Below are positions 2,714 through 64,000 of a stretch of DNA of 64,000 nt, piece after piece. A model generated the notes under the pieces. It was not told the origin of the DNA and did not search any database. It was given only the letters and a program-made list of their open reading frames with translations. A program made the translations under genes and the position numbers. The stretch is from Mobula hypostoma (lineage: Eukaryota), in assembly GCF_963921235.1 (NCBI RefSeq), contig NC_086097.1:131504001-131568000 (forward strand), given 5' to 3'. Every line of letters starts with the position of its first letter. Position 1 is the first letter of the stretch.

Positions 2714-4250
2714 AGAGTTAGGAGCACCAAGTTTCTGGGAGTGCACATAACAGATGATCTTACCTGGTCCTTCAACACCACCTCTTTGGTCAAGAAAGCA
2801 TGGTACCATCTCTGCATCCTGATGAGATTGAGGAGAGTGAGGCTCCTCCCACCCCTAGTTCTGACCAATTTTTACAAGAGCTCCATCAAGTGTGTCCTGA
2901 CCAGCTGCACTACTGACTGACAAGGCATATGACTGCACATCCCTACAAAGGATTGCGAGGACTGCTGAGAGGATAATCGGCATCTCTCTTCCACCCATCA
3001 GAGATATTTATCAGGACTGCTGTGTTCACAGGGCCCTTGGCATAGTCAATGATCCCTGCCATCCTTCCAAAAATCTTTATGACCCACAACCATCAGGCTG
3101 TAGCATTAGAACAAGGAATGTTAGAATGGGAAACAATTTCTTCCCCAGGCCGTAAGACTACCAAACTCCCTGCCACCAGCCGGGTCTCATCATATATGAA
3201 GTGCCAGGTGTGTTCTACTTTTTACTTTTTATCTTGTGTCATAAATGCACCTTATTATTTGTTAATTTACTCATAGTAACACAGTGGATTGTGGCTTATT
3301 GGGACACATCAGGACCAATTCATTTTGTCCCAATTAAGTGGGCTGGCCCAATTAGATGAAGTTTCATGGAAATAGTTAAAAAGTTATAAAAGGACAAACT
3401 ACCATTTAACTGAGTAATAAATTATGTATTTAAGTGGAATACAAAACAAATTAGAACATTATCAACCCTACTACAGTAACATAAATTTGTGCGTTGGTTC
3501 CTAGTATTTATCGGTGGGGGAATTCATATCATGTACGCTGCTGTGTTCTTTTGATTGACTGTAAATGAACAAAATTAGTGCAGACACCTTGTGTAGACAA
3601 TGAACTGCCCTCATATAATGCTATCGATTGCATCCTCCAAATCTTCATTTTCATTGTAACATTCCAAATGATTGTTGACCTCTTCAAATTATTTGTAGTT
3701 CCTAACTTATTGAAAGTAGTGAAATCATTTCATTTTCACTCCCAACTGTTTCTGGCATCTCCACACTTGAATGCTTGAAACCGCAGTGAACAAAACAGTT
3801 CTGAATTGTCTAACTGCTTATTCCTTGCTAACTATCAATGACAAAAATCATTGCTTTTTGAACACAAGCACACGTGATAACACTATTTAAAAACAGTTTG
3901 CTCTAAGCACAGTGTAAAGTCTAAAGGCTACACATGCATGCATTTGTTGCTAGTTAGAAGCTATTCAGCAACATTATCCTGGCCCAATTAAGTGGCATAG
4001 TGTCCCAAGTAAACAAAGGGAATCCCAACCATTTTCTTCATTAGTGTTTGTTCTTCAAGATTTGTCCCAAATAACTGGCTGTCCTGATTAATAGATGGGC
4101 CAATTAACTGGAATCTGCTGTATTACTTCATATGTTAAGTGGGTGAGTTACATGTACTGTGTTGCACACCTGGATCCGAAGGAATGTTGTTTTGTTTGGC
4201 AATATACATGTGTGTGGTTGAATGACAATAAACTGAACTTGAACTTGGAC
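2714..4250 (+). mobile_element. Rex1/Babar-type LINE 3' fragment, split by a DNA transposon at 3282-4120
   Basis: KFLGVHITDDLTWSFNTTSLVKKA...LTNFYKSSIKCVLTSC in ORF 2669-2920; the 3' UTR resumes at 4121 and ends in caataaactgaacttgaacttg. Confidence 0.85.
3282..4120. mobile_element. Non-autonomous Tigger/pogo-like (Tc1/mariner) DNA transposon
   Basis: Imperfect terminal inverted repeats: cagtggattgtggcttattgggac vs reverse complement of the right end, cagcagattccagttaattggccc; subterminal gtcccaa/cccaattaa repeats at both ends; right flank TA, left flank CA (probably a mutated TA); interrupts a LINE tail. Confidence 0.75.
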
Positions 4251-4789
4251 ATATCACTATCCGACTCCACACAGTTTTCTTTTGCTGGACCTAAAGCTTC
4301 CTCTTGCTTCTGAAAGGCTTTTCCCTCTTCCGAGTTCTTTCCTAATGTTTTACCAATCAAGTTAAGTTACCCTCTGTGGGAGAAGCTTTGAAGGATCATT
4401 CTGTTTTCCAGTTCAGTGGATCATTGTGATGCAGCTTTCAAACTAATGATGGATACATACACACCTCACGTTCTGGAGCTGAGGTTTCCTGTGATTTCAC
4501 TACTGGTCTGGCATAAGGGAAAACTTAATTGCTCACTGACCCCCCCCGCCCCACAGCATATTATTTCCAGCACCAAAATGTTAAAATTAGAAAGTGATTT
4601 GTATTTTTCTTCCATTTAGACTGATTTTTATCTCTCTAAACTGCTTATGCAGTGAAAATTTGGTGTTCTTACTCTGTTGCATCAACATAGGCACCATAAA
4701 GTTTACACTCAAAATGTCAAAGGATGGAAAAATAATCCTATTTCTCGCCCACTGAAAATCAGAATTTCTGTAATGACCTGACCTCTGCC

Positions 4790-5070
4790 AGCACTAACAC
4801 CTTGCAAGGTCTGCACACTCCTCCAATATTTTCTGACCGTCAATGGCGATTGTGCCTTCCGCTGCCAGTGTCCCAAGCTTTGGGATCATCTCCCTTAAAC
4901 TCCCTACCTCACTTCCTTCCTTTAAGATTCACCTTAAACTCTGCCGCTTTGACCAAGTTTTTGTTCACCATCTAGTATCATTTATGTAGCAGCATCGATT
5001 TTTGTTTGATGGCAGAGTTGTGAAGCAACTTAAGATGTTTTTGCTAAATTATAGGCACCATAAAATGGAT
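4790..5070 (+). mobile_element. Old L2-type / DeuSINE-type 3' tail
   Basis: ccttaaactctgccgctttgaccaagttttt...tgtgaagcaacttaagatgtt...ggcaccataaaatg resembles the L2-derived tail of shark SINEs (recognition by eye). Confidence 0.5.
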
Positions 5071-5712
5071 ATTGTTGAATCCATATTAATAGCAGAGAAA
5101 AGAAGGATGTCTGGAGAAGGAGAAAAGCCTTGGGAAAAAGAATTCTGAAAAAGCTTAAGATTATACAACGCGCCTATTCTAAACTGATTTTTTTTCTTTC
5201 TCCACAATCCGGTGTTGTGTTCACAACACAAAATCAGAGAATACTTCCCAGTACAGAATACAAAAGGGCAGCTCTACCCATACATCTGTGAGTTCTTAAA
5301 CAAAGGTTTGTTTGTATGCCTCAATCACTCCTGCTCATGAAAGTGGACTCTTTACTTGAAAAACATTTCAGGGAAACACTCTAAACCAACATCCTGGTAT
5401 AAATTTGCAAAATGCAATACAGGCCCGATTGTCTTTAGAGTGGATGCAGGTTGCATACGAATAGTCCTTTCAGAAATGTAATGTTCTTTGCATGGCTCAC
5501 TGGCTAATGTACAATAAATCAACAAAGACAAGCTTCAGTTCCGCTATTGGGCAGTAAAGCCACTGTTATTTTATCTTTTTACAGTATTTAATTGGAAGGT
5601 GCTTCCCCATCAACTCCCTTACTGAAACATAACCCAGCTTTCAAATGAGTTCTTCTCTTAAGAGATTAGAAAGATAACTTTTTTCTCTCTTTTGCACTCA
5701 TGCACACACTCA

Positions 5713-5728
5713 TACAGACACAGACAGA

Positions 5729-5787
<59 letters not shown>

Positions 5788-5796
5788 ACACACATA
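5713..5796. repeat. (CA)n microsatellite
   Basis: Directly visible CA dinucleotide run. Confidence 0.97.
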
Positions 5797-6949
5797 CTTT
5801 AACAAGACTTTTTTCAGACTGAGAATAAAGTTACAAGTGTCTCGCTTTTTTTGGTGAAGGAGATTGAAATTAGATGCTGAATGAGCCATAGAAGGCAAGG
5901 CTGGGAAAATGTGAATTTGGCAACTTTTACTGGTTAGACTGGAGCTTCCAATTCCCTGCTTACTGCACCAGGTGTCCATTGCATTCAAATGATACTATTA
6001 TTCATAGCACTCTGAGAACTAAAGTATTAAAGTACAAAAAAAAATTTGCAACTGAATAAAGATATAATCCTGAAAATATAACTCACAATTTAGACCTTTG
6101 ACTGACCAGCACAAATGCTCCATTGTTTGTGAGTAATGTATATTTATCAACCTTTTCCCTTCTGTTTCCAGACTGTTAACATGTTAATGGAAAACTTCTA
6201 TTTCTAACAGGCATAGCTGAGGAATCTGGTTATGCATAAAACTCAGTACAGAGATGTATTAGTTTTCAGACCTCTTAGTAAAGCTGACATGTGTACTTCA
6301 AAATGGTCAGAGTTTATTCAAGATTAGCAATTATTTCTTTATTGCATTAAAGTTGCCCAGGTAGAACCACTGAGATTAAAATAACAGAAAGAGAACAAAA
6401 CCCTCCTTGGGCTGCAGAGGAGAGGTTATTTTCTGGATATCCAGCTGTGTTAATAGTTTACCTTAAAAGTTGTAAAGACGAAAGAACGCCGCATTTTTAC
6501 AGTGCACTTCAGAAGTTAAATTATTTCTGCAATGGGGGAGATATAATGCAATGTAAATGCAGCTAGGCATCTAAAGCAAGAGAAAAAGCATTTAATAATA
6601 AAAATGGGCTCAAAATATGGACATTAGCCTCAGAAGCCAATTTGGCAGTGAATCCCATGTCTACATAGAACTAGCCTGCCAATATAGGCTGTAAATGAAC
6701 AGCATTATTGTTCTGGTATTTGATCAATTTAATTAGTGATTTGCTTTCACAAATTGCCATTTGAATGATATTTGGATATCAGTGTTGGCAAAGTTACAGT
6801 AAATGATAAAAAAAATAATTTTGTACAGAAATAAATGGTAAACATCATTGCCAAAAAGATTAAAAGTAAGTGTGATTATTGGACATGAATGAACATAGAG
6901 CAATGCTGTAGGACTGGGCTCCAAATTTCACATAGTACTGGCCTCCTTA

Positions 6950-7190
6950 CAACTCTTGAAAGAACTCCTAGTATGATTCGATGGACTCTTGACCTCATAA
7001 TCTACCTTGCTCTAATGGTGCACCTAACTGTCTATCTGCATTGCACTTTCAGTGTAACTTTAAGACTTCATTCTGCATTCTGTTGTTATTTTACCTCACT
7101 GCATTGTTGCAATGAATTGATCTGTATGAATGTTATGTGAGACAGTTTCCGTAGTAGCTCAGCGCTTGTGACAACAATAAACCAATTTAA
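6950..7190 (+). mobile_element. Rex1-type LINE 3' UTR fragment
   Basis: gatggactcttgacctcataatctaccttg...ctgcattgcactttc...gtgacaacaataaaccaatt; same family as 12460-12690 and 31970-32190. Confidence 0.6.
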
Positions 7191-9228
7191 TTTACTAGCT
7201 TGCCTTTCAAGTTCCTTGCAGGATCTCTCAAACTGCAGCGAATGAGATATTTTAATATAAACTCTTCCTGTAACATTGGATACACAGCAGCCCATATATA
7301 CACAGCAAAGTTCCAAAGCAGCAGTATGATATTAACCTGATAAACTCCTTTTTAGTGGTTTTGATTGAGGATTAAATATTAATCAGGGCTTGGTAGAATA
7401 CCTGCTGTCCAAATGAGATAACAGATACGACTTCATAGATAATGTCATTACCATCTTTGAGAGAACAGTACAGGATTATCAGCTGAGGAAATTGTGCTTC
7501 GGGGATCCAGCACAGGGGCTTTGGCTGCACATCTCCCAAATGAAATAATTTTTTTTCAGCAGACTTCATCGTTGCTACACGGAGCGAGGAGTGGGGAGGA
7601 GAGGAGAGGACAAATTAGTAGACCTGCGCGTGGAATGTCCATTCAGTGGACTTCTGAAGTATTAGTTCAAATACAAGGTTTAAGGAGAGAAGGAGCAGGT
7701 TGGCTGTGTATCTTAGTCTAGCTACTAAGGATTGGAGAGCAGGTTCAACGTTCAAAGTAAAATTTATTATCAGAGTACATGCATGTCATCCCATACATCC
7801 CTGAGGTTCTTTTTCTGTGGGCATACTTAGCAAATCTATAGAACAGTAACTGTAAACTATAAACAAACTGTGCAAGTGCAGATATAAATAAATAGCAATA
7901 AATAACAAGCATGAAGTAACAATGTAAAAGAGTCCTTAAATGAGTGCAGCTATCCCTTTTTGTTAAAGAATCTGATGGCTGGGGGATAGTAACTGTTTTT
8001 GAACCTGGTGTGGCAAGTCCTTCTGTACCTTCTACCTGATGGCAACAATAAGAAAAGAGCGTGTCCTGGGCAGTGAATTCTTTGATGATGGATGCTACTA
8101 TTCTACAGCAACCTTTCGTGTAGATGTGCTCAATGGTTGGGAGGGTTTTAGCCATGATGTACTGGGCCAAATCCACTATCTTTTGTAGGATTTTCTGCTC
8201 AAAGGCATTGGTGTTCCCATGCCAGCCATAATACAGCCGATCAGCACACTTTCCATCACACATCTATAAAGTTTGCCAAGGTTTTTTGATGACATTCTGA
8301 ACCTCTGCAGACTCCTGAGGAAGTAGAGGTTCGATCGTGCTTTCTTTGCAATAATATTTATATGATAGGTCCAGGATATGTCCTCTGAGATGGTGACACC
8401 CAGAAATTTAAAGTTACTGACCCTCTCCACCTCTGATAATTGCTGGCTCATGGACCTTTGGTTCCCCTCTTCTGAAGTCTACAATCAATTCCTGGGTCTT
8501 ATTGACATTGAGTAGGAGGTTGTTGTCATTACACCACTCAGACAAATTTTCATTCTTCCCTCCTGTATGCCAATTCATCACCTCCTTTGATAAAGCCCAC
8601 AACAGTGGTGTCACCTACAAACTTGTATCTGGTGTTGGAGCTTTACTTAGCCACAGAATCATAGGTGTAAAGTGAGTAGAGCAGGGGACTAAGTACACAT
8701 CCCTGTGGTGCTCCTGTGCTGATGGAGATTGTGGAGGAGATATTTTTGCCAATTGACACTGATTGGGGTCTACAAGTGAGGAAATCCAGGATCCAACTGC
8801 ATAATGGGGAATTGAGGCTCATGTCTTGGAGTTTATTGAGGGGATGATGGTGTTAAATGCTGAGCTGTAATCGATGAAGAGCATCCAGATGTATGCATCG
8901 TTGCTGTCCAGATGTGTGAAGAGCCAACAAGATACCACCTGCTGTAGACCTGTTGCTTCAATAGGCGAATTGAAGTGGATCCAAATCGAGATTCAGACAG
9001 GAGCTGATTTACTTCAACACCAACCTCTCATAACACTTCATCACTGTGGATGTAGATGTCACTGGGTGATCGTCACTTAAACAAGTTACCATACTCTTCC
9101 TGGGCACCAGTATGATTGAAGCCTGATTGAAGTAGATGGGTGCCACACACAGCCGAAGCGAGAGATTGAAAATATTCGTGAATACACTAGTCAGTTGGTT
9201 GGCACAGTTCTTCAATACTCCAAGGATT

Positions 9229-10848
9229 GGCAAGGATTCCCCTCCCGCTACAGATGACCCCTTCTCTTGTCTTCAACCTTCCTCCTCCTCCTCCTGGACA
9301 CCCCGCCCGGGCCTTCTACCTGCACTTGATCTCTTCATCTCCAACTGTCCCCGAGACATCAACCGTCTCAACTTCACCACTCCTCTCTCCTGTTCTAACC
9401 TCACTCCCTCTGAACGCACTACCCTCCACTCTCTCCGCACTAGTCCCAACCTCACCATCAAACCTGCTGACAAAGGTGGTGCCGTAGTAGTCTGGCGGAT
9501 GGACCTCTACCTCACTGAGGCCAAATGGCAGCTCTCTGACACCTCCTCTTACTTACCACTGGAACAGGACCCCACCAAAGAACATCAAACCATTGTCTCC
9601 CACACCATCACTGCCCTTATCAACTCCAGAGACCTTCCATCCTCAGCTGCTAAACTTACTATTCCCACACCCCGTACCGCTCAGTTTTACCTCCTCCCAA
9701 AGATACACAAGCCTGACTGTCCTGGTAGACTCATAGTTTCTGCCTGCTCCTATCCCACTGAACTTGTATCTGCCTACCTGGATTCCATTTTGTCACCCAT
9801 AGTTCAGTCCCTCCCCACCTACATCTGGGATGCATCCCATGCCCTCCACCTCTTCAATAACTTCCAATTCCCCGGTCCCAACTGCTACATTTTTACTATG
9901 GATGTCCAATCCTTATACACCTCCATTCCCCATCAAGAAGGCCTCAAAGCCCTCCGCTACTTCCTGGATAATAAACCTCACCAGTTCCCCACCACCACTA
10001 CCCTCCTCCGGTTGGTGGAACTGGTTCTCACACTTAATAACTTCTCTTTTGGCTCTTCCCACTTTCTTCTGACTAAGGGTGTAGCTATGGGAACTCGCAT
10101 GGGCCCCAGCTATGCCTGCCTCTTCGCTGGTTATGTGGAACAGTCTGCGCTCCAGACCTATTCTGGTACTGTTCCCCAATTTTTCCTTTGGTACATTGAT
10201 GACTACATTGGTGATGCTTCGTGCACCCATGCTGAGCTCATCAAATTCATCGACTTTACTTCAAACTTCCACCCAGCCCTCAAATTCACTTGGTCTATAT
10301 CTGACACTTCTCTCCCCTTTCTTGATGTCTCGGTCTCCATCTCTGGAGACAGACTGTCCACTGACATCTTCTACAAGCCCACTGACTCTCATAACTACCT
10401 CGACTATACCTCTTCCTACCCCGCCACATGCAAAAATGCCATTCCCTATTCCCAGCTCCTCCGTCTCCGCCGCATCTGCTCCGAGGATGAGGCTTTCCGT
10501 TCCAGGACATCTCAAATGTCCTCCTTCTTTAAGGATCGTTGTTTCCCTTCTACCGTCATCAATGATGCCCTCACCCGCATCTCCTCCATTTCCCGCACTT
10601 CGACCCTTACCCCATCCTCCCGTAACCACAACAGGGACAGAGTTCCCCTTGTCCTTACCTACCACCCCACCAGCCTCCGGATCCAGCTCATTATCCTCCA
10701 CAATTTCTGCCACCTTCAACAGGACCCCACCACTAAGCACATCTTTCCCTCTCAACTCCTCTCTGCTTTCCACAGGGATTGGTCCCTCCGCGACTCCCTT
10801 ATCCACACTTCCATCCCCACTGATCTCCCACCCGGCACATTCCTGTAA
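9229..10848 (+). CDS. PLE reverse transcriptase (open frame, N-terminally truncated)
   Basis: Motifs IKPADKGGAVVV, FYLLPKIHKP, MDVQSLYTSIP, KGVAMGTRMGPSYA, YIDDY, LPFLDVSV, KPTDSHNYLDYTS; the first ~31 aa of the tracked ORF (from 9136) are antisense Rex1 sequence, not part of the element. Confidence 0.9.
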   Translation, partial: GKDSPPATDDPFSCLQPSSSSSWTPRPGLLPALDLFISNCPRDINRLNFTTPLSCSNLTPSERTTLHSLRTSPNLTIKPADKGGAVVVWRMDLYLTEAKWQLSDTSSYLPLEQDPTKEHQTIVSHTITALINSRDLPSSAAKLTIPTPRTAQFYLLPKIHKPDCPGRLIVSACSYPTELVSAYLDSILSPIVQSLPTYIWDASHALHLFNNFQFPGPNCYIFTMDVQSLYTSIPHQEGLKALRYFLDNKPHQFPTTTTLLRLVELVLTLNNFSFGSSHFLLTKGVAMGTRMGPSYACLFAGYVEQSALQTYSGTVPQFFLWYIDDYIGDASCTHAELIKFIDFTSNFHPALKFTWSISDTSLPFLDVSVSISGDRLSTDIFYKPTDSHNYLDYTSSYPATCKNAIPYSQLLRLRRICSEDEAFRSRTSQMSSFFKDRCFPSTVINDALTRISSISRTSTLTPSSRNHNRDRVPLVLTYHPTSLRIQLIILHNFCHLQQDPTTKHIFPSQLLSAFHRDWSLRDSLIHTSIPTDLPPGTFL

Positions 10849-10849
10849 G

Positions 10850-11245
10850 CGTTAAGTGCTACACCTGTCCCTACACCTCATCTCTTGCAACCATTCAGGG
10901 CCCCAAACAGTCCTTCCAGGTGAGACAACACTTCACTTGTGAGTCTGTTGGGGTCATCTATTGCATCCGATGCTCCCGGTGCGGCCTCCTCTACATCGAT
11001 GAAACCCGACGCAGATTGAGGGACCGCTTCGTTGTGCGCCTCCACTCCGTCCGCCACAACAGACAGGATCTCCCGGTAGCCACCCACTTCAACTCTGCTT
11101 TCCATTCCCATTCAGATATGTCCATACATGGCCTCTTCTACTGCCATGATGAGGCTAAACTCAAGTTGCAGGAGCAACACCTCATATACCGTCTAGGTAG
11201 TCTCCAGCCCCTTGGTATGAACATAGAATTCTCCAACTTCCGAAA
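10850..11245 (+). pseudogene. PLE GIY-YIG endonuclease domain, separated from the RT by small indels and a stop near 10840-10855
   Basis: HFTCESVGVIYCIRCSRCGLLYIDETRRRLRDRF...HFNS...EQHLIYRLGSLQPLGMNIEF; YIG is changed to YID. Confidence 0.88.
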
Positions 11246-11452
11246 TTCCCTCCCCCTCCCTTCCTCTATCCCTATTTCATTCTATCCCCTCCCCCAGCTC
11301 CCTCATGTTTCCGCCTCCTTCTTCTACCACCCATTGTTTTCAGGGCTATGACGTCAATGCTGCCCCTCTCCCACCCCTTTGTCTTTCAAATTACTGGTCT
11401 TTCAACTGACGCTACAAGCATTCTTCAAATCCGTCCCCATCTTTCATTCTTC

Positions 11453-11488
11453 AGTCCTGACGAAGGGTTCCGGCCCGAAACGTCGACT
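11453..11488 (+). ncRNA. Minimal type I hammerhead ribozyme motif in the PLE 3' terminus (predicted cleavage after C11484)
   Basis: Stem I AGTC/GACT; core CTGACGA (11457-11463); extra A; stem II GGGT-TCCG-GCCC; GAAA (11477-11480); GTC triplet; stem III reduced to the ACGT palindrome. PLEs are known to carry minimal hammerheads. Confidence 0.82.
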
Positions 11489-12269
11489 CATCATTTCTGA
11501 CTGATGCTACCCGACCTGCTGAGTTCATCCAGTGTACTGAAAGTGTTTCTTCAATACTCCCCCAGGTACTCTATCTGGACCAGATGTTTTCATTGGATTC
11601 ACTCTCTTGAAGGCAGCCCGCATGTCATCTTCAAATACTGAGACCAAAGGATCATTGGAAGACAAGGGGGTGTGTGACGATTCTTCCCTGTTCTGGTGGT
11701 CAAAGCAAGCATAGAAGGGCTGTTATGGAAGTGAAGCTCTGTTGTCGTAAGATTTAACTTTGTAGGCAGTTTTGGCATTCAAACCCTGCCACAGCCACCA
11801 AGCATCCTTCAATGCCGGTCCAGTCCACAATCTCCACTTCGCCCGAGAGATGGCTTTCTGGAGATCATACCGGCACCTCTTGTAGCATTCTTGTTCTCCA
11901 GATTAGTAATGAAAAGTAGTGTTGGTCTCTTGATGCTGAGATGCCACTCTGTGTATTGCTCAGGGGACACCTTGCAATTGTCTCTATGTATTTATGGAGA
12001 CTTCATTGTCCTGCACTCCATGTAACACAACACTGAAAACCATAGGGGAGCAGACAGTGCTGCAGGAAGAGCAGTGAAAAGACTCCGAGCCTGACGGCCA
12101 GGAAGAACATCCCGAGAGCAGCAGGAGCAGGGCAAGCCAGAGGGAGAGGGTGGTTCCCAGGCAGATATCAACTGTCTCATCTCTGAAATAATCAGGGAGG
12201 GAGACATTCGAGTCTTGAGATTTTGGGAAGTCCTGAATGCAGAGTTGTTTCTCCTAAGGAAACTACTAT

Positions 12270-16093: not shown

Positions 16094-16254
16094 ATTTCTT
16101 ACTATCCCTTCTTTCAATTAGTCCTGACGAAGGATTCTGGCCTGAAACGTCAACTGTACCTCTTCCTATAGATGCTGCCTGGCCTGCTGCGTTCACCAGC
16201 ATTTTTTGTGTGTGTTGCTTGAATTTCCAGCATCTGCATATTTCCTCGTGTCTG
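16094..16254 (+). mobile_element. Solo PLE 3'-terminal copy with near-intact hammerhead core
   Basis: ttagtcCTGACGAaggattctggcctGAAACGTCaactgtacc...; possible TSD aggaact at 16087-16093 and 16255-16261. Confidence 0.8.
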
Positions 16255-29435: not shown

Positions 29436-29665
29436 AAACAAAAAGCAGACTGCTGGAGGAATTCAGCAGGTCAGCAACATCTATAGAAGAAAAATGGATA
29501 GTTGACATTTTGGGTTGAGACCCTTCATCTGGATTGGATGAAGGGTCTTGATCTGAAATGTTGCCTTTCCGCTTCCCTCCACAGATGCTGCTCGTCCCAC
29601 TGGGTTCTTCCACCAGAATGTTAGCTGCTCCAGATTCCACAGTCTGCAGTTCTTGTGTCTCTATT
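29436..29665. repeat. Head-to-head palindromic PLE-terminus element (older subfamily), centred on the hammerhead core
   Basis: ...gagacccttcatc|tggattg|gatgaagggtcttg...; arms ctgctggaggaattcagcagg...atctatag vs cacagatgctgc...ttcttccaccag. Confidence 0.8.
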
Positions 29666-35911: not shown

Positions 35912-37211
35912 GTTTACAATGTGAAGACTAACAAGAGACATGCATTATGGTTTACACCTGAAGTGAGCGGCAAATTAATTAAAATGGAATTGGATACTGA
36001 CACAGCTGTTTCAGTTGTGACACAAAATTAGTTTGAAAGGCATTTCAAAGATATTGAACTGAAGCCCACAAATATTCAGCAATAACCTTTACTGGAGAAA
36101 AGATAACTTTTGTGGGAATGGCACCAACAACAGAAGCACAAACGCAGAGATGGGGTCTGTTTCTCGGAGGTCACCATTACAAGATTGAATTCAAGAGGAT
36201 GACTAATGATGGATTGTCCTGTTTAGGCTCGGAAAAGGAAATACTTGAAAAATTTACATCAGAGGACACTGCTCTTGACTTAGTCTCGCGACTGCAAATT
36301 GAAAGTCTCTCCATTACGGTAGAGATGTTCTAGAGGGAAATTAGAAAAACACCCCACACTGTCTCCAATCTACATGGCCACCCAAAATGGCTGGAATGCA
36401 CAGCAGAAATCCCAGTCTCTACATTTTACCAAGGCCGGGATGAATTTGCCCTTGACAGGGGTTACCTTATGTGGGAATTGAGAGCTGTATCGTCCATGCT
36501 GAGAGCTAAAACGTTGGAGGAGCTACATACTGGTCATCTAGGTGTGGTCAAAATGAACGTGTTGGCTCAAAGCTTTGTATGGTGGCCTGTGATAGATCAG
36601 CAGATCGAGCAACTTGCCGTGCACAGCCTGGGATGCCAGCACATCCAGAAGAAAGGTGTCCAGGGCTGTCAGAACCACTTCCTGCAGTCCCAGAGGCAAC
36701 TCTTACAACCGCCAGAGGAGGAGGCCCCAGAATCTGAGATTGTTTCACAGCCACAAGTCTCTCCTGCCATGCAGAGTGACTCCCCCTTATCAAGAAAGCT
36801 CTTATGCCACAAGAGTAAGAAATCCTCCACAGCAATGAAATCTTTAGGCCTGAGTGGGACAATTTAAAATTTACTATCATGTGGATGTCTGTGTAGCTGT
36901 TGTATTACATAGTATACTGTGTATATGTTGAGATATATTCTATATTGAATTGGAGTTTATAACTAAGCTGGGAGGAGTGTTGTGTATTTAATATTTCAGT
37001 AATATTTGAGTAATATTGTAAATATATTGTTTGATTAAGCATTCTTGTTCGTTTAATTCATTACAGTTTTATATAAAAGTATGTGAATGATGTATGTCAT
37101 GCCATATATGCCTGTCTTGCTAAAAGTAAAAATGAAACTAAGACATGTATTCAGGACTCTTCATGCTTTGCTTCTGATTAGTTTTATGTTTTGAAGTTAC
37201 AAAACATAACA
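35912..37211 (+). mobile_element. Internally deleted Ty3/Gypsy LTR retrotransposon (protease, integrase zinc-binding region, polypurine tract, 3' LTR)
   Basis: aaaatggaattggatactgacacagctgtttcagtt (KMELDTDTAVSV, aspartic protease); LEELHTGHLGVVKMNVLAQSFVWWPVIDQQIEQL...GCQ; purine tract gggaggag directly before TGTTGTGT. Confidence 0.85.
36978..37211 (+). repeat. Gypsy 3' LTR (about 234 bp)
   Basis: Starts TGTTGTGT right after the polypurine tract and ends ACATAACA (7/8 inverted termini, TG...CA). Confidence 0.75.
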
Positions 37212-42689: not shown

Positions 42690-43680
42690 AATCAGAATCA
42701 GAAACAGATTTAATATCACCGGCATATGTCCTGAAATTTGTTAACTTCATTGCAGCAGTACAATGAAATATATGATAAATAAATATAGAGAAAAATACTG
42801 AGTTACATTAAGTATATATATGTATATTAAATAGCTAAGTTAAAATACGTAGTGCAAAATAACAGAAATAAAAAAGTAGAGAGGCAGTGCTCATGGGTTC
42901 AATATCCATTTAGAAGTTAGATGACAGAGGGGAAGAAGCAGTTCCTGAATCACTGAGCGTGTGCCTTCAGCCTTCTGAACCTCCTTCCTGACAGTAACAG
43001 TGAGACCAGGGCATGTCCATGGGGATGGGGATCCTTAATGATAGACGCTGCCTTCCTAAGGCACAGCTCCCTGAGGATGACTTGGATACTATGGGGGCCA
43101 ATACCCATGTTAGAGCTGACTAATATTACAAGTTTCTGCAACTTATTTCGGTGTTGTGCAGTGGCAACCCCCTCCCCCATACTAGATGGTGATGCAGCCG
43201 GTCAGAATGCTCTCCAAGCTACATTTGTAGAAGTTTTCAGGTGCTTTAGTTGACAAACCAAATCTCCTCAACTTCCTAAAGAAATATAGCTGCTGTCTTG
43301 TCTTGTTTATAGGTGCATCAATATGTTGGGTCCAGGTTAGGTCCTCGGAGATATTGACACCCAGGAAATTGAAATTGCTCACTCTCTCCACTCTGATGTC
43401 CCTGTGAGGATTGGTTTGTTTTCCTTTGTCTTACCCTTCCTGAAGTCCACAATCAGCTGTTTGGTCTTGCTGACGTTGAGTGAAAGGTTGTAGCTGTGAC
43501 AGCATTCAACTAACTGATATATCTCACTCCTGTATGCCCTTCTGTCACCATCTGAATTTCTGACATCAACGGTTATATCATCAGCAAATTTATAGATGCT
43601 GTTTGAGCTATGCCTAGCCCCACCATCATGGGTGCAGAGAGAGTAGAGCAATGGGCCAAGCACACATCCCTGTGGAGTGG
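42690..43680 (-). mobile_element. Rex1-type LINE RT and C-terminal fragment
   Basis: PQGCVLGPLLYSLCTHD, YKFADDITV, LNVSKTKQLIVDFRK, ERVSNFNFLGVNISEDLTW. Confidence 0.92.
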
Positions 43681-44349
43681 CACTTTTCAATAAAAGTTGT
43701 TGATACACTGATTTAATCAGATCAAGTTTGTCATATGCACAAGAATATGTGTCCACAGGTGTAATGAAAAGGTTACTTGCAGCAGCATCACATGCATATG
43801 GCATTAAAGACGTGACATTCATAAGAAAAGCTTTGAATGTAACCGATACAATATCACCCAAGAAAAAGCAACAGTAGAACAAGTAAAACAAAGTCCACTG
43901 TGCTGAAAAGCGACCAAAGTGTTTTTTCTATTGTGAAGTTGTACGGTTTGGTTGAAGAACTGAATTGTTGAAGGGAAGAAGCTGTTCTTGAACCTTGTAG
44001 GGGTGCGACTTCAGGCTTCTGAGTTTTCTGCCTGATGGTGACAGTGAATAGATGGCATGGTTGGGATTTTTTAACGAAAGATATTCCCTTCTTGAAGCAG
44101 CAGCTCTTGTTTTCCAGAAACTCATCCCTGCCAACTTTTAGACTTAAAATGTCGGCAGAATATGGGTAACTACATCTCAGAATGGGTAGAAGGCCGGGTA
44201 GGTTTGACTGAAGCAGAAATTTATTGACGCAGAGGATGGTGAAACTTTGAAATTCTCTCCTCCATAGCGCCTGGAAGCTCAGATGCTGAATTCATTCATA
44301 CTAGTGGCCAATAGATTTCTGGACATTTGGATATGCGGATAATTCAGAG

Positions 44350-45090: not shown

Positions 45091-47735
45091 TGCTGGAAGA
45101 CGGAGCTGTGGTCAATATCTTTATCTTGATCTTGATGAATGGTGGGACAGGAATGAAGGTCAGGCACTAATTCCTGCTCCTACTTATTCTGTTCTCGCCT
45201 TCTTATATAAGGTTACCTTCATTGTAACTTCAATAATGAGTCCAATACTTAAAAGTACATTTGCAGCTTATTAATGAAGTGTATTTTGAATGGGAATTAT
45301 ATTTGTGTACATACACTCCTCTTCGTAGAGTTTATTAACTTATCACATCATTCATGAATTGTACCATCCTAGACACAGTCTGCTATGTCTGCCCACTTAT
45401 ATTTTCCCAAGACAGTGCATTGGAAGACTTGATGATCTACATTTGATTCCTGTCCTGTTTGGTAGAATAAACTCTGGGTAGGGACTTGGGTTCATAGGTT
45501 AATTAGCCATCGTAAATTTCCCATGTGAAACATTAACTCTGTTTTTCTTTACAGACTCCACTGACCACAATTTTTGCTTTTTATTTCAGATTTCCAGCAT
45601 CTATACCTATTGTTTTGATTTTTGCAGTTCAAGGTATTGTGAATTAGTGCATTGATCAGAAATGTATAATTATGGATTATTCAGCCCTGATCCCATTCAG
45701 CTTTCAAATAGGTCAAAATGGATTGATACTTTTAATCCATTTATCTACCTTCCTTTACTGTGCCAAATATCATTTGCACTAACTTTACATTAAAACCATT
45801 TTTTACTCTGCCTAGATTCTCATCAACTCCCCCCCACCCCCCCACCATCAAATTTTACTTCTCACCAGCACACGGGGGAAAGTTTACAGCAGCCCTTTTA
45901 ACCCACCATCCTGTGTGAAGTGAGGGAGGAAACCTGTGCAGTCAAGAGAATGTGCAGACTCTGTATAGACCGCACCTAAGATCGGGATTGATCGCGGGGT
46001 CTCCGGCACAGTAAGGCAGTAGTTTCACCAGTTGTGCCAAAGTGCTGTCCTTCGAGACTAACGTGCTAAACCAATGTGTTAAACAATGGGACAAAACCCG
46101 CATTTTCTTTGATAGATACTTTTCATTTATGTTGAAGCAGTTCAGCTTACTTGCACGTAATGACTTACATTATTGGTCAGATCACAATCTGAACTGATTC
46201 AAGATAGCTTTGCCGACAACATGATGGGAGGAAGAGGAAAGCAAGGAGCCTATCACAATCACCAAATCACCAGGTTTTGATCCCACCTGGGTCTCAGAAT
46301 ACACAATCTTCCCAGGTCGCTATACATATGAGGGAAAAGAAAGTTGAACACATGTGTACCTGCTTTTTTTAAAATTCCACAAGCACAATAAACATGTCCA
46401 TCTTTCCTGATGGCTTTGGTATCACAGATATTTTGATCTGCTCTCATATATTGTCATTTGCTTATGGGCAAAGTGATTGTTTTAGATTTCCAGCATCTGC
46501 AGATTTTCTCATATTTGTGATTATCTTGGTTGCCTGATAACAAAACATTGATTAAGGAATCCAATGGCAAGACAGGAGAAACTGTACTTTCATGACTGCA
46601 TTTGACTGTGAAAGAATCCTTGCAAAACTGGACATTGGGAGTCAAGATGAAAGCGCTACTGCCAGCCATGGGTTATGACAGCCTGAAGTCCCATACAGCT
46701 TATTCAATAATATTTGCCTGTGATGCTGCTGTAATAAAGTTTTTAATACACATGTGCATATTTGTGATTGTGCATATGGCCATAAATTCAATTAAACTTT
46801 GACTTTGATCAGAATACTCATAAACTCTATTACTTAGATGGAAAGGATCAGAGGCTTTTAGGGTAGCATCATCTCTACATTTCCATACAAATTCCACACC
46901 ATGCTGTCTAATAGTACCATTCCTTTATGATCTTAATCTCTGAACTCCCTACTCAGCAGTTTTCTGCAAGTGCCTGCACAGTAAAGACTTAGTGGTGAAA
47001 AGTGGAAGCTCACCACTGAATTTACAATGGCCATCAAGGATGTGCATTAAATGCCTCCTTCTGCTAAGGACATTATTTACAATTTTCCTTCCTCCGTTGC
47101 CATTAATTCAAAATCATTTTCTAATCTTCTTCAGAGGCATTGAAACAGAAAACTCAGTCAGAGGTTGGCATTAAGAAGAAAAAGGAAGAGGTAGGATTAT
47201 AGGTTTACATTACAGAAGGAGTCTATTCATTTTGAAGTATCCATCCATAATGGCCTAAACCATGGACATTAGTGTAATAATATCACAAACAAGACAGAAT
47301 CTACAAATGCTGGAAATCTAAGCAACACACTCAAAATGCTGGAGAAGCTCAGCAGGCCAGGGAGCATCTATAGAAAAAATGTACAGTTAACGTTTTGGAC
47401 TGAGATCCTTCAGATGAACTGAAGCTTCACAGATGCGTAACTAAAAATCCTTAGTGTTTGTTGGGTTTTTTTTGGATTTAGGACATAGTAAACATTGACT
47501 TCAGCAAACAGCCTTCAGCTCTGAAGAGGCATTGAAGATTAAACCTAAAATGTAACTCTGAACAATGGGTTCCTAAGAACCATGAACCATTAATTGGAAG
47601 AGACTGCAGTTAATTGGAAGATCAAACAGCGCTGCTTTAAGATCATTATTTGTGTGTATTTGGGTGTCAGTAGTATGGGTGCGAAGGAGGGAGGAGTGAA
47701 GGTGTTGTGTAGATCAAAGAAAGCATTGTATTTGT

Positions 47736-49317: not shown

Positions 49318-52140
49318 CTACATGTACTTAACTAAAAGTCTCTTAAAAGACCCTATCATATCCACCTCCACCACCATTGCTGGCAGCCCATTCCATGCAC
49401 TCACCACTCTCTGAGTAAAAAACTTACCCCTGACATCTCCTCTGCACCTACTCCCCAGGCACGTTAAACCTGTGTCCTCTTGTGGCAACCATTTCAGCCC
49501 TGGGAAAAAGCCTCTGACTATCCACACGATCAATGCCTCTCATCATCTTATACACCTCTATCAGGTCACCTCTCATCCTTTGTTGCTCCAAGGAGAAAAG
49601 GCTGAGTTCACTCAATCTATTCTCATTAGGCATGCTCCCCAATCCAGGCAACGTCCTTGTAAATCTCCTCTGCGCCCTTTCTATGATTTCCACATCCTTC
49701 CTGTAGTGAGGCGACCAGAACTGAGCACAGTACTCCAAGTGGGGTCTGACCAGAGTCCTAGATAGCTGCAACATTACCTCTCGGCTCCTAAATTCAGTTC
49801 CATGATTGATGAAGGCCAATACACCATACGCCTTCTTAACCACAGTGTCAATATGTGCAGCTGCTTTGAGTATTCTATGGACTCGGACTCCAAGATCCCT
49901 CTGATCCTCCACACTGCCAAGAGTCTGACTATTAACACTACATTCTGCCATCATATTTGACCTACCAAAATGAACCAATTCACACTTATTTGGGTTGAAC
50001 TCCATCTGCCACTTCTCAGTCCAGTTTTGCATCCTACCAATGTCCCACTGTAACTTCTGACATCCCTCCACACTATCCACAGCACCTCCAAACTTTGTGT
50101 CATCAGCAAACTTACCAACCCATCTCTCCACTTCCTCATCCAGGTCATTTATAAAAATCATGAAGAGTAAGGGTCCCAGAACAGATCCTTGAGACACACT
50201 ACTGGTCACCGGCCTCCATGCAGAATATGACCTGTCCACAACTACTCTTTACCTTCTGTGGGCAAGCCAGTTCTGGATCCACAAAGCAATGTCCCCTTCG
50301 ATCCCAAGCTTCCTTACTTTCTCAATAAGCCTTGCGTGGGGTACCTTATCAAATGCCTTGCTGAAATCCATATACACTACATCTACTGCTCTTCCTTCAT
50401 CAAGGTGTTTAGTCACATCCTCAAAAAATTCAATCAGGCTCGTAAGACATGACCTGCCTTTGACAAAGCAATGCTGACTACTCCTAATCATATTATACCT
50501 CTCTAAATATTCATAAATCCTGCCTCTCAGGATCTTCTCCAACAACTTACCAACCACTGAGGTAAGACTCACTGGTCTGTAATTTCCTGGGCTATCTCTA
50601 CTCCCTTTCTTGAATAAAGGAACAATATCCGCAACCCTTCAATCCTCCGGAACCTCTCCCGTCCCCATTGATGATGCAAAGATCATCGCCAGAGGCTCAG
50701 CAATCTCCTTCCTCGCCTCCCACAGTAGCCTGGGGTACACCTCATCCAGCCCTGTCGACCTACCCAACTTGATGCTTTACAAAAGCTCCAGCACATCCTC
50801 CTTCTTAATAGCTACATGCTTAAGCTTTTCAGTCTGCTGCAAGTCATCACTACAATCACCAAGATCCTTTTCCATAGTGAATACTGAAGTAAAGTATTCA
50901 TTAAATACCTCTGCTATTTGCTCCAGTTCCATACATACTTTCCCACTGTCACACTTCATAGGTCCTATTCTTTCATGTCTTATCCTCTTGCTGTTCACAT
51001 ACTTGTAGAATGCCCTGGGGTTTTCCTTAATCCTGCCCGCCAAGGCCTTCTCATGGCCCCTTCTGGCTCTCTTAATTTCCTTCTTAAACTCATTCCTATT
51101 AGCCTTATAATCTTCTAGATCTCCAACATTACCTAGCTCTCTGAACCTTTTGCAAGCTTTTCTTTTCTTCTTGACTAGATCTATTACAACCTTTGTACAC
51201 CATGGTTCCTGTACCCTACCATAACTTCCCTGTCTCATTGGATCGTACCTATGCAGAACTCCACAAAAATACCTCCTGAATATTTGCCACATTTCTTCCC
51301 CACTTTTCCCTGAGAACATCTGTTTCCAATTTAAGCCTCCGATTTCCTGCCTGATAGCCTCATAACTCCCCTTACTCCAATTAAATGCTTTTCTAACTTG
51401 TCTGTTCCTATCTCTCTCCAATGTTATTGTAAAGGAGATAGGATTATGATCACTATCTCCAAAATGTTCTCCCACTGAGAGATCTGACACCTGACCGGGT
51501 TCATTTCCCAATACCAAATCAAGTACAGCCTCTCCTCTTGTCAGATTATCTTCATATTGTGTCAAGAAACCTTCCTGAACACACCTAACAAACTCTACCC
51601 CATCTAAACCCCTTGCTCTAGGGAGATGCCGATCAATATTTGGGAAATTAACATCTCCCATCACGTCAACTCTGTTACTATTACACCTTTCCAGGATCTG
51701 TTTCCCTCTTGGCTCTCGATATCCCTGTTACTATTGGGCGGCCTATAAAAAACACCCAATAAAGTTATTGACCCCTTCCTGTTCCTAACCTCCACCCACA
51801 GAGACTCCGTAGACAATCCCTCCATGGCGTCCAGCTTTTCTGCAGCTATGACACTATCTCTGATCAACCGTGCCACGCCCCCCACCTCTTTTGCCTCCCT
51901 CACTGTCCATTCTGAAACATCTAAAACCCGGCACTTGAAGTAACAATTCCTGTCCCTGAGCCATCCAAGTCTCTGTGATGGTCACCACGTCGTATCTCCA
52001 AGTGCTGATCCACGCTCTAAGCTCATCCGCTTTGTTCACAACACTCCTTGCGTTAAAATAGACGCAACTCAAACCTTCGGTCTGAGTGCATCCCTTCTCT
52101 ATCACCTGCCCATCCTCCCTCTCGCACTGTCTACAAGCTT
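49318..52140 (-). pseudogene. CR1 ORF2 (endonuclease and reverse transcriptase), broken into several frames
   Basis: Tracked ORFs 51854-52204, 51661-51903, 50777-51664, 50249-50572, 49448-50239 and 49318-49533 are consecutive pieces of one APE-RT polyprotein. Confidence 0.93.
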
Positions 52141-55836: not shown

Positions 55837-56060
55837 CAAACACGAGAAATTCTGCAGATGCTGGAAATTCAAGCAACACACATCAAAGTAGCTGGTGAAT
55901 GCAACAGGCCAGGCAGCATCTCTAGGAAGAGGTACAGTCGACGATTCAGGCCGAGACCCTTCGTCAGGACTGGGGTCTCGGCCTGAAACGTCGACTGTAC
56001 CTCTTCCTAGAGATGCTGCCTGGCCTGCTGCGTTCACCAGCAACTTTGATATGTGTTGCC
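55837..56060. repeat. Young head-to-head palindromic PLE-terminus element (87-bp arms, 13-bp spacer on the hammerhead core)
   Basis: Arms 55873-55959 and 55973-56059 differ at 5 positions; flanks tttattcaa-atct / tttattcaacatct. Confidence 0.92.
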
Positions 56061-60814: not shown

Positions 60815-60950
60815 ATGAGTCCAGATGAAGAGTCTCAATCTGAAACGTTGACTGTACATTTCCTGCCACAGATGCTACTTGACCTGTTGAATTCCTGCAG
60901 CAGTTTGTTTTTTTTTGCTCCAGCTTCCAGCACCTGCAGTCTCCGTGTCA
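60815..60950 (+). repeat. Solo PLE 3'-terminal copy, older subfamily
   Basis: agtcCAGATGAagagtctcaatctGAAACGTTgactg...cacagatgct... Confidence 0.72.
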
Positions 60951-63139: not shown

Positions 63140-63800
63140 TTAGATTAGATTCAACTTTATTGTCATTGTGCCAAGTACAGATACAAAGCCAATGAAATGC
63201 ATTTAGCATCTGACCAGAAGTGCAAAGGATAGTGTTATTTACAAAATAACTGCAAATAAAAAAAGTGCTACAGCACACAAATATAAAAGTACTGAGACAG
63301 TACAATACGGATGCAATACTGCTTAGCGCTGTGTTGAGAGGTTCAGCAGTGTCACAGCCTCAGAGAAGAAGCTGTTCCTGTGCCTGCTGGTGCGGGAGCG
63401 GAGGCTCCCGTAGTGCCTTCTGGATGGGAGGAGAGTAAAAAGTCCATGGTTAGGGTGAGATGCATCCTTGATGATGCTTTTCACCCTGCCCAGGCAGTGT
63501 TTATGGTAGATGTTCTCAATGGTGGACAATTGGGTGCTGATAATCCGCTGGGCAGTTTTCACCACACTCTGGAGTGCTTTGCGCTCCAATACGGGACAAT
63601 TGCCATACCACACTGAGATGCAGTTGGTGAGTATGCTCTCAATGGTACAGCGGTAAAATTCCGTCAGTATCCTGGGACAGAGGTGAGCTTTCTTCATGCT
63701 CTGCAGGAAATAAAGGTGCTGTTGTGCCTTTTTGATCAGGATGGAGGAGTTCAGGGACCAGGTGAGATCCTCAGAAATGTGGACACCAAGGAATTTGAAG
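63140..63800 (-). mobile_element. Young Rex1-type LINE 3' fragment with open C-terminal frame
   Basis: FKFLGVHISEDLTWSLNSSILIKKAQQHLYFL...FYRCTIESILTNCISVWYGNC...IIKDASHPNHGLFTLLPS in ORF 63323-63847; (aatct)n tail. Confidence 0.92.
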
Positions 63801-64000
63801 CCTGAAAAGTGCATGCCAGCACACACACAGGATGGACTTGGGCCCAAGTGCCCTTGTCTCTGCCGTCCCCTGGCTTATCCCCTTTTCACTCTCCTTTTGG
63901 TCCTTCACATCAGAAGTGTTGGCTACTCCGTGCGTATTAAGTCCCACTCTGGGACCTTGGTGGATCCAAAGGGATGGTGACAGACGTACATCGCAAGACA

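Follow-up and report, generated by a model that had tools for sequence, protein, structure and literature searches.

Within a 64,000-nt stretch of the Mobula hypostoma genome (the window), 36 nt on the forward strand at 11453-11488 had been read as an intact minimal hammerhead ribozyme that can fold only as a dimer, which raises the questions of whether the motif is real, whether its active fold needs two copies, and whether this particular copy matters. The sequence divides into AGTC / CTGACGA / A / GGGT TCCG GCCC / GAAA / CG TC / GACT, and the proposed parse (core, stem I, extra A, and GUC) was correct. It describes a minimal type I hammerhead with a full core and two 4-bp stems: stem I pairs 11453-56 with 11485-88, the CUGACGA core strand occupies 11457-63, the extra A lies at 11464, stem II (4 bp) spans 11465-76, and GAAA at 11477-80 ends on A15.1 (11480). 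The ACGU palindrome (11480-83) is self-complementary, as claimed, and only a C and a G separate A15.1 from U16.1, leaving no stem III loop in the motif. Cleavage is predicted after C11484 (C17 of the GUC triplet). Every element of the consensus given for minimal hammerheads of Penelope-like elements (PLEs) by Cervera & de la Peña 2014 (PMC4209133) is present, i.e., CUGANGA with one extra base, a stem II opening with G and closing with C, GAAA, no stem III loop, palindromic 15.2-16.2, an NUH cut site, and a stem I of 3-5 bp.

A hammerhead look-alike arising by chance might be suspected from the fold energy, which is ordinary (the monomer fold was not more stable than shuffles, z -0.93), and from Rfam, where no hammerhead covariance model matched the motif at E<=10. 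This search had been proposed as a check and was negative; the motif lacks stem III. A minimal-hammerhead descriptor for which core, both stems, and NUH were obligatory gave 48 matches in a 1.464-Mb sample of 13 genome blocks, one of them centred on the window, compared to 0 matches in each of five dinucleotide shuffles, and 47 of the 48 belonged to the PLE family of 11453-11488. The descriptor matched exactly once within the window, at 11453-11488, in line with the original prediction that core and stem I are both intact in no other copy there. With as many as 3 mismatches allowed, a pattern search returned five related sites from the window, and 100 shuffles gave none. With the position in a pLTR and all consensus features in agreement, and with the core conserved among copies (see below), a chance origin was excluded, its probability being close to nil.

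The motif was less surprising than it had been taken to be. Minimal hammerheads in the pLTRs of metazoan PLEs, with their palindrome, extra base, and dimer model, were defined in 2014 (PMC4209133), and Lünse et al. 2017 (PMC5785218) name dimer cleavage in their title. The observation is thus confirmed and its interpretation is right in kind, the kind being already published. Cartilaginous fish appear in neither Table S1 nor Fig. S3 of PMC4209133, and one chondrichthyan with retrozymes is included in a preprint (bioRxiv 10.64898/2026.07.22.740005). By title or abstract, we found no paper on the present PLE family, which the supplements of that preprint may list.

The motif sits in a 5'-truncated PLE at 9222..11546 (+), subfamily A of this analysis, in which the 5' pLTR and about 1.1 kb of 5' ORF are missing. 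A 14-bp target-site duplication borders it (9208..9221 and 11547..11560, +; the first T of the right copy may instead be the last base of the element). The insertion lies in an older, decayed LINE on the minus strand, whose left part with RT motifs covers 7743..9221 and which resumes from 11547 to about 11715; a relative of this LINE spans the insertion point. The RT-coding frame, with a DKG motif and YIDD (9222..10848, +; RVT_1 E=1.1e-5, under the Pfam cut-off), was aligned to 19 relatives and ends where the RT-EN linker carries a net 1-nt frameshift (10838-10852). The frame for the zinc-finger linker and GIY-YIG endonuclease (10824..11243, +; C-x3-C-x2-C in relatives) has YID in place of YIG, is missing about 2 nt around the stop codon, and had no Pfam match. 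A pyrimidine-rich 3' UTR/pLTR part follows (11244..11452, +), highly variable among subfamilies, in which the core lies about 198, 216, 273, or 303 nt from the stop. Beyond the cut site lies the pLTR end (11489..11546, +). Recurring 3' ends fall at two points, and this copy terminates at the first of them (about +63 to +70), without the optional tail that reaches about +100. Truncated, frameshifted, and with YID for YIG, this element cannot be a source element.

In its relatives, the family has a single ORF with an RT carrying DKG plus a GIY-YIG at the C terminus, the frame running unbroken over the linker, as in EN+ PLEs. It also shows 5' truncation, partial tandems, inverted 5' copies, and an optional 30-40 bp tail, which are among the PLE features listed in PMC8557442. 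The RT-EN linker reads CKRKCYTC in relatives, a CX2-5CxxC zinc finger of the type described for Neptune and Nematis and as missing in Penelope/Poseidon (PMC8557442), and the preprint cited above lists no clades other than Neptune and Poseidon for its vertebrates. Judged by this linker, shared with Nematis, the family likely belongs to the Neptune clade.

Compared to the majority of the 19 relatives, the element carries 84 substitutions in 2,007 columns (4.2%; relatives 3.1-5.6%). The claim that it is the youngest PLE held in part: it is the longest and least-decayed long copy in the window, but a short inverted pair at 55835-56084 matches its relatives equally well (95.6% identity to the best fetched relatives versus 94.7% for the element, in a comparison that flatters the latter because its relatives were the best genome-wide matches). 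This pair consists of two folded-back pLTR ends with 112-nt arms and a junction inside the hammerhead, and such junctions cluster at the 5' edge of the hairpin. An Rfam mir-789 match at 55919-56013 (52.7 bits, gathering 100) was rejected as false, being this same fold-back pair. Elsewhere in the window, a second and older PLE of subfamily B occupies 1-1445 (GIY-YIG match at 607-1014, E=1.4e-4), its hammerhead damaged at G8 and 16.2. An integrase zinc-binding (H2C2) fragment at 36334-36867 is likely an LTR-retrotransposon remnant, and LINE remnants on the minus strand (43379-43927, 49448-51727, and 63323-63874) include RT, endonuclease, and a C-terminal piece matching ALKBH8_N. No host exon was identified in the 64,000 nt.

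Full elements of the family carry a hammerhead at both ends, in their pLTRs. Loci L159/L171 and L165/L172, found via the RT region, have another hammerhead, located about 1.28 kb upstream of the point where the window copy starts; L171, a partial-tandem copy, has two same-strand motifs 3,549 nt apart, and in L172 the 5' motif is present. An inverted 5' partner accompanies many insertions, as described for PLEs (PMC8557442). For the window motif, the nearest intact motif on the same strand lies 132 kb downstream, and the descriptor found none within 111 kb upstream; a same-strand copy at 16120 has kept core and palindrome and has damaged stems. One exact form of the intact motif was counted 12,813 times across the assembly of 3.48 Gb (6,344 + 6,469; reversed control 0). 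A profile search of the 1.464-Mb sample found 300 related remnants, which extrapolates to about 700,000 genome-wide. Positions 15.2/16.2 were CG in 34 of the 48 descriptor matches and CA or TG in the other 14, and the 34 CG-type motifs per 1.464 Mb extrapolate to some 80,000 intact ones in the genome. A different arrangement was seen at L175 (2268-3025; G000:C5), where a 56-nt unit is repeated 13.5 times in tandem about 250 nt upstream of a near-full PLE; every unit is a hammerhead in decay whose palindrome has mostly gone (ACAT). This is either a micro-retrozyme-like array or a minisatellite, and no array of its type was present among the 300 motif matches of the sample.

The active fold of the motif is expected to require two copies, in agreement with the published PLE consensus and with the Schistosoma minimal hammerhead, for which no activity as a monomer and low activity as a dimer are reported (PMC4209133). 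Modelling of the active dimer amends the stem I of the original prediction, in which each motif closed its own: with the A15.1-U16.1 geometry formed across copies, stem I would pair between them, and each copy would thus be the enzyme strand for the other's cut site. The isolated 36-mer was predicted to form a hairpin of -11.9 kcal/mol, with G5-A6-C7-G8 paired to C15.2-G16.2-U16.1-C17 at a probability of 0.99. The probability of this off-helix was 0.73 in 117 nt and 0.91 in 161 nt of context, and in 301 nt the off-helix, stem I, and stem II were all absent from the prediction. For two copies, predicted energies were -14.7 kcal/mol for the double hammerhead, -23.8 for two off-hairpins, and -28.9 for an inactive dimer that uses the GUCGAC palindrome spanning the cut site, under a nearest-neighbour model that omits Mg2+ and tertiary or core contacts. 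Naked RNA of a lone copy is therefore predicted to bury both core and cut site in the hairpin, and the modelled energies fit the low or protein-assisted activity reported for PLE hammerheads.

Conservation was assessed in 69 copies chosen by at least 130 nt of upstream homology and in four subfamily consensuses. The 36 nt of the motif were 92-100% identical among the four consensuses, compared to 49-74% for the upstream 80 nt, 47-79% for the next 14 nt, and 71-90% for the following 40 nt, the stretch beyond +18 thus also being fairly conserved. Non-CpG variants shared by lineages (in at least 2 copies) were found at 0/621 core, 7/949 stem, and 310/9,667 flank positions, counts of non-independent events for which p=7e-9 is descriptive only; singletons made up 1.1% in the core versus 2.2% in the flank (p=0.08; 69 copies). 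The excess conservation of the core, whose absence would have spoken against the original prediction, was thus observed. The identity of the motif against that of the upstream 80 nt suggests that source elements likely kept it under purifying selection, and the pattern of variants fits near-neutral decay of inserted copies, mostly at CpG. The 11-nt core was kept in 70 of 147 motif-covering copies of all ages. Coding through the motif was rejected as the reason for its conservation since the reading frame differs between subfamilies: counted from C3, the first conserved ATG comes after about 162 nt here and after 163, 160, and 161 nt in the other subfamilies, and D has an in-frame TGA.

Stems I and II were invariant, without covariation, in the four young consensuses, except for C11.1U in subfamily B, which is largely fixed (25/35 copies), weakens stem II, and replaces the canonical G10.1-C11.1 pair. 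As the stems do not covary, structure and sequence recognition are not separable from the Mobula hypostoma genome alone. B is the most abundant young subfamily, and the window contains C11.1U examples at 55941-55967 (-) and 16124-16150 (+). Of the 147 copies that cover the motif, 8 older ones have an A at core position 4, owing in one case to an alignment shift (e.g., 60818-60853 and 29510-29545 (-)); these copies are possibly an old subfamily with an altered core. Subfamilies A, C, and D have ORFs about 96% identical and different pLTRs, and L195 (C5 block, - strand, near 45540) is a chimera of C-type upstream and B-type downstream sequence that switches at the hammerhead.

If cut RNA served as the template for insertion, copies would be expected to end at C17 or to start at G1.1. 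Among 36 copies picked by upstream sequence alone, the window copy included, none ended at the cut site; 33 reached +60 or beyond, and the other three stopped at +45, +22, and -33. The 3' ends of 64 young copies, which were selected for downstream cover, formed by eye two groups near +63-70 and +100-105. At the 5' side, 20 of 30 near-full copies (16/26 with shared flanks collapsed) read across the 5' cut site, and a single one started within 4 nt of it, at +4. Near-full copies with shared flanks were L267, L272, L273, and L274, whose flanks are identical on different, small contigs, and L255 and L275, both on C82; these are segmental duplicates or assembly redundancy. Most young B copies (57/66) start upstream of the cut. 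For the 37 young B 5' ends between -60 and +15, two were at the cut site versus 3.9 expected, both of them inverted-pair partners, and 17 were at the 5' edge of the hairpin versus 6.8 expected (p=1e-4; -42 to -29, an interval picked after inspecting the data). For copies without inverted partners, the numbers were 8/16 at the hairpin edge versus 0/16 at the cut site. These junction counts are based on the 1.464-Mb sample and 30 loci. With no 5' peak at the cut site and no 3' ends there, cut RNA as the insertion template was rejected. Since inserted copies read across the cut site, the templates of those measured were likely uncut, or else religated, and the junction peak at the 5' edge likely reflects fold-back of a cDNA hairpin.

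The region upstream of the motif also has features reminiscent of splicing. A pyrimidine tract and a YAG ending in stem I are found in every subfamily (window 11430-11454 and equivalents), a TACTAAC-like element is present in subfamily B, and A, C, and D, unlike B, have a donor-like site (G|GTAAT) at the stop codon. The tract with its YAG is possibly a splice acceptor like that of the D. virilis Penelope. Copies lacking the stretch between ORF end and hammerhead, as expected for an intron ending at the motif, numbered 0 of 129 measurable ones (151 ORF ends, 22 without a measurable motif), and no GT..AG joint onto the hammerhead site was present among the joints listed, the 1196-1500 joint beginning at a non-donor.

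We consider it very probable that the motif is a passenger, namely the pLTR hammerhead of a PLE, likely of the Neptune clade, within a truncated insertion, that it is likely inert here, and that pairs of such motifs in source elements cut as double hammerheads. Source elements stand in partial tandem with one hammerhead per end, about 3.5 kb apart. Their two motifs would likely join through ACGU, each lending its stem I strand to the other, and the resulting double hammerhead would cut slowly after C17, probably helped by the element's own protein, as Schistosoma and Anolis data suggest. In a lone copy, G5-G8 of the core, predicted to fold onto the cut site, would keep the motif off. Reverse transcription would begin past the cut site, 63-105 nt downstream, and its template is likely uncut RNA, so that each new insertion would carry the whole motif along. 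A single motif in a broken, shortened element, among many thousands of genome copies, is then ordinary, and the idea that the copy at 11453-11488 matters as a dimer-dependent cutter is not supported: a partner is missing, the element around it is dead, and copies in the genome read across the cut site.

Two other readings weigh the same evidence differently. What is conserved could be a signal to the PLE protein, for recognition or folding, with cleavage vestigial or incidental in the family; variants of this reading include RNA binding, positioning of the RT start site, an endonuclease target, and a promoter or splice signal. It would account for the uncut templates of inserted copies, for the lack of stem covariation, and for C11.1U in the commonest young subfamily. 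It also agrees with the Poseidon element of Anolis carolinensis (Frangieh et al. 2024, PMC11167929), whose hammerhead is dispensable for insertion in vitro, mutants inserting normally, with uncut RNA as the main substrate and no RNA ends at the cut site, and with Naiad and most Chlamys elements, which are without the motif, a motif that may 'parasitize' PLEs (Craig 2021, PMC8557442). However, the invariant positions are precisely the catalytic core and the palindrome, and across the 40 animal species of PMC4209133 (Fig. S3) the stems vary but core, extra base, and palindrome stay constant. In Anolis, moreover, core mutants abolish cleavage and a double mutant partly rescues it (PMC11167929), and we regard the signal reading as unlikely. 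The original prediction, in its strong form, makes the copy at 11453-11488 itself functional through concentration-dependent pairing in trans with transcripts of other motifs. Its core, stems, and palindrome are all intact, and the extrapolated CG-type copies would make partners plentiful if transcribed. Such pairing would nevertheless have just 4+4+4 bp to set against a stronger intramolecular off-hairpin, the element is without its 5' part, and an intact motif at 4% divergence is common, given how many copies of all ages keep the core; this strong form is highly improbable.

A further reading, which we hold to be a long shot, gives the predicted GACG:CGUC hairpin a role as an off-switch that would leave the template uncut until the PLE protein joins two copies, with cutting in trans of host transcripts that contain passenger motifs, some 80,000 intact and mutually compatible copies being available, and with the hairpin setting the place where RT stalls or folds back; this last part draws on the 5' junctions piling up at the 5' edge of the hairpin and not at the cut site. 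If true, it would amount to an RNA cutter that acts across the genome and is triggered by a transposon. What PLE hammerheads do in cells (PMC8557442, PMC7761336) is not settled by the copy at 11453-11488. As a data point, the passenger reading leaves a family whose motif was likely selected in source lineages, yet whose insertions are without trace of cut templates, and these genome footprints would carry the Anolis in vitro result over to a second clade. With so very many copies, cyclic-phosphate sequencing in Mobula hypostoma would be a sensitive test of in vivo cutting.

Double hammerheads that rescue a weak stem III are described for newt satellite 2 and avocado sunblotch viroid (PMC4209133, PMC6765202, PMC7761336), and these two share this fold with non-LTR retrozymes and with the motif studied here, for which it is predicted. 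All three differ in consisting of tandem repeats or circles that are short, non-coding, and have canonical stems, whereas here a single motif ends a coding element; the tandem non-coding units, each with a hammerhead, that define non-LTR retrozymes are not seen at 11453-11488. Also comparable is the Anolis Poseidon (PMC11167929), with its hammerhead in the pLTR, two downstream RT start points with an optional tail, and insertion from an uncut RNA template, the last being read here from copy ends alone. Its cleavage needs the element's protein. It belongs to another clade, without a zinc-finger linker, and its ORF begins inside the hammerhead, in contrast to the present family with its first conserved ATG well downstream and its frame through the motif not conserved. 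The closest likeness is to the metazoan minimal hammerheads, which are also type I, without a stem III loop, with palindromic 15.2/16.2, an extra base after A9, G10.1-C11.1, a short stem I, and U-rich upstream sequence, and which likewise occur as two copies in full elements and as the 3' one alone in truncated copies. A Neptune example from Acropora given in PMC4209133 has the same layout (CUGACGAA / 4-bp stem II / CGUC). Stem II has 4 bp here compared to 7-8 bp in the assayed Schistosoma type, and the 12,813 exact copies are far more than the approximately 4,000-9,000 given for coelacanth and Xenopus (PMC4209133).
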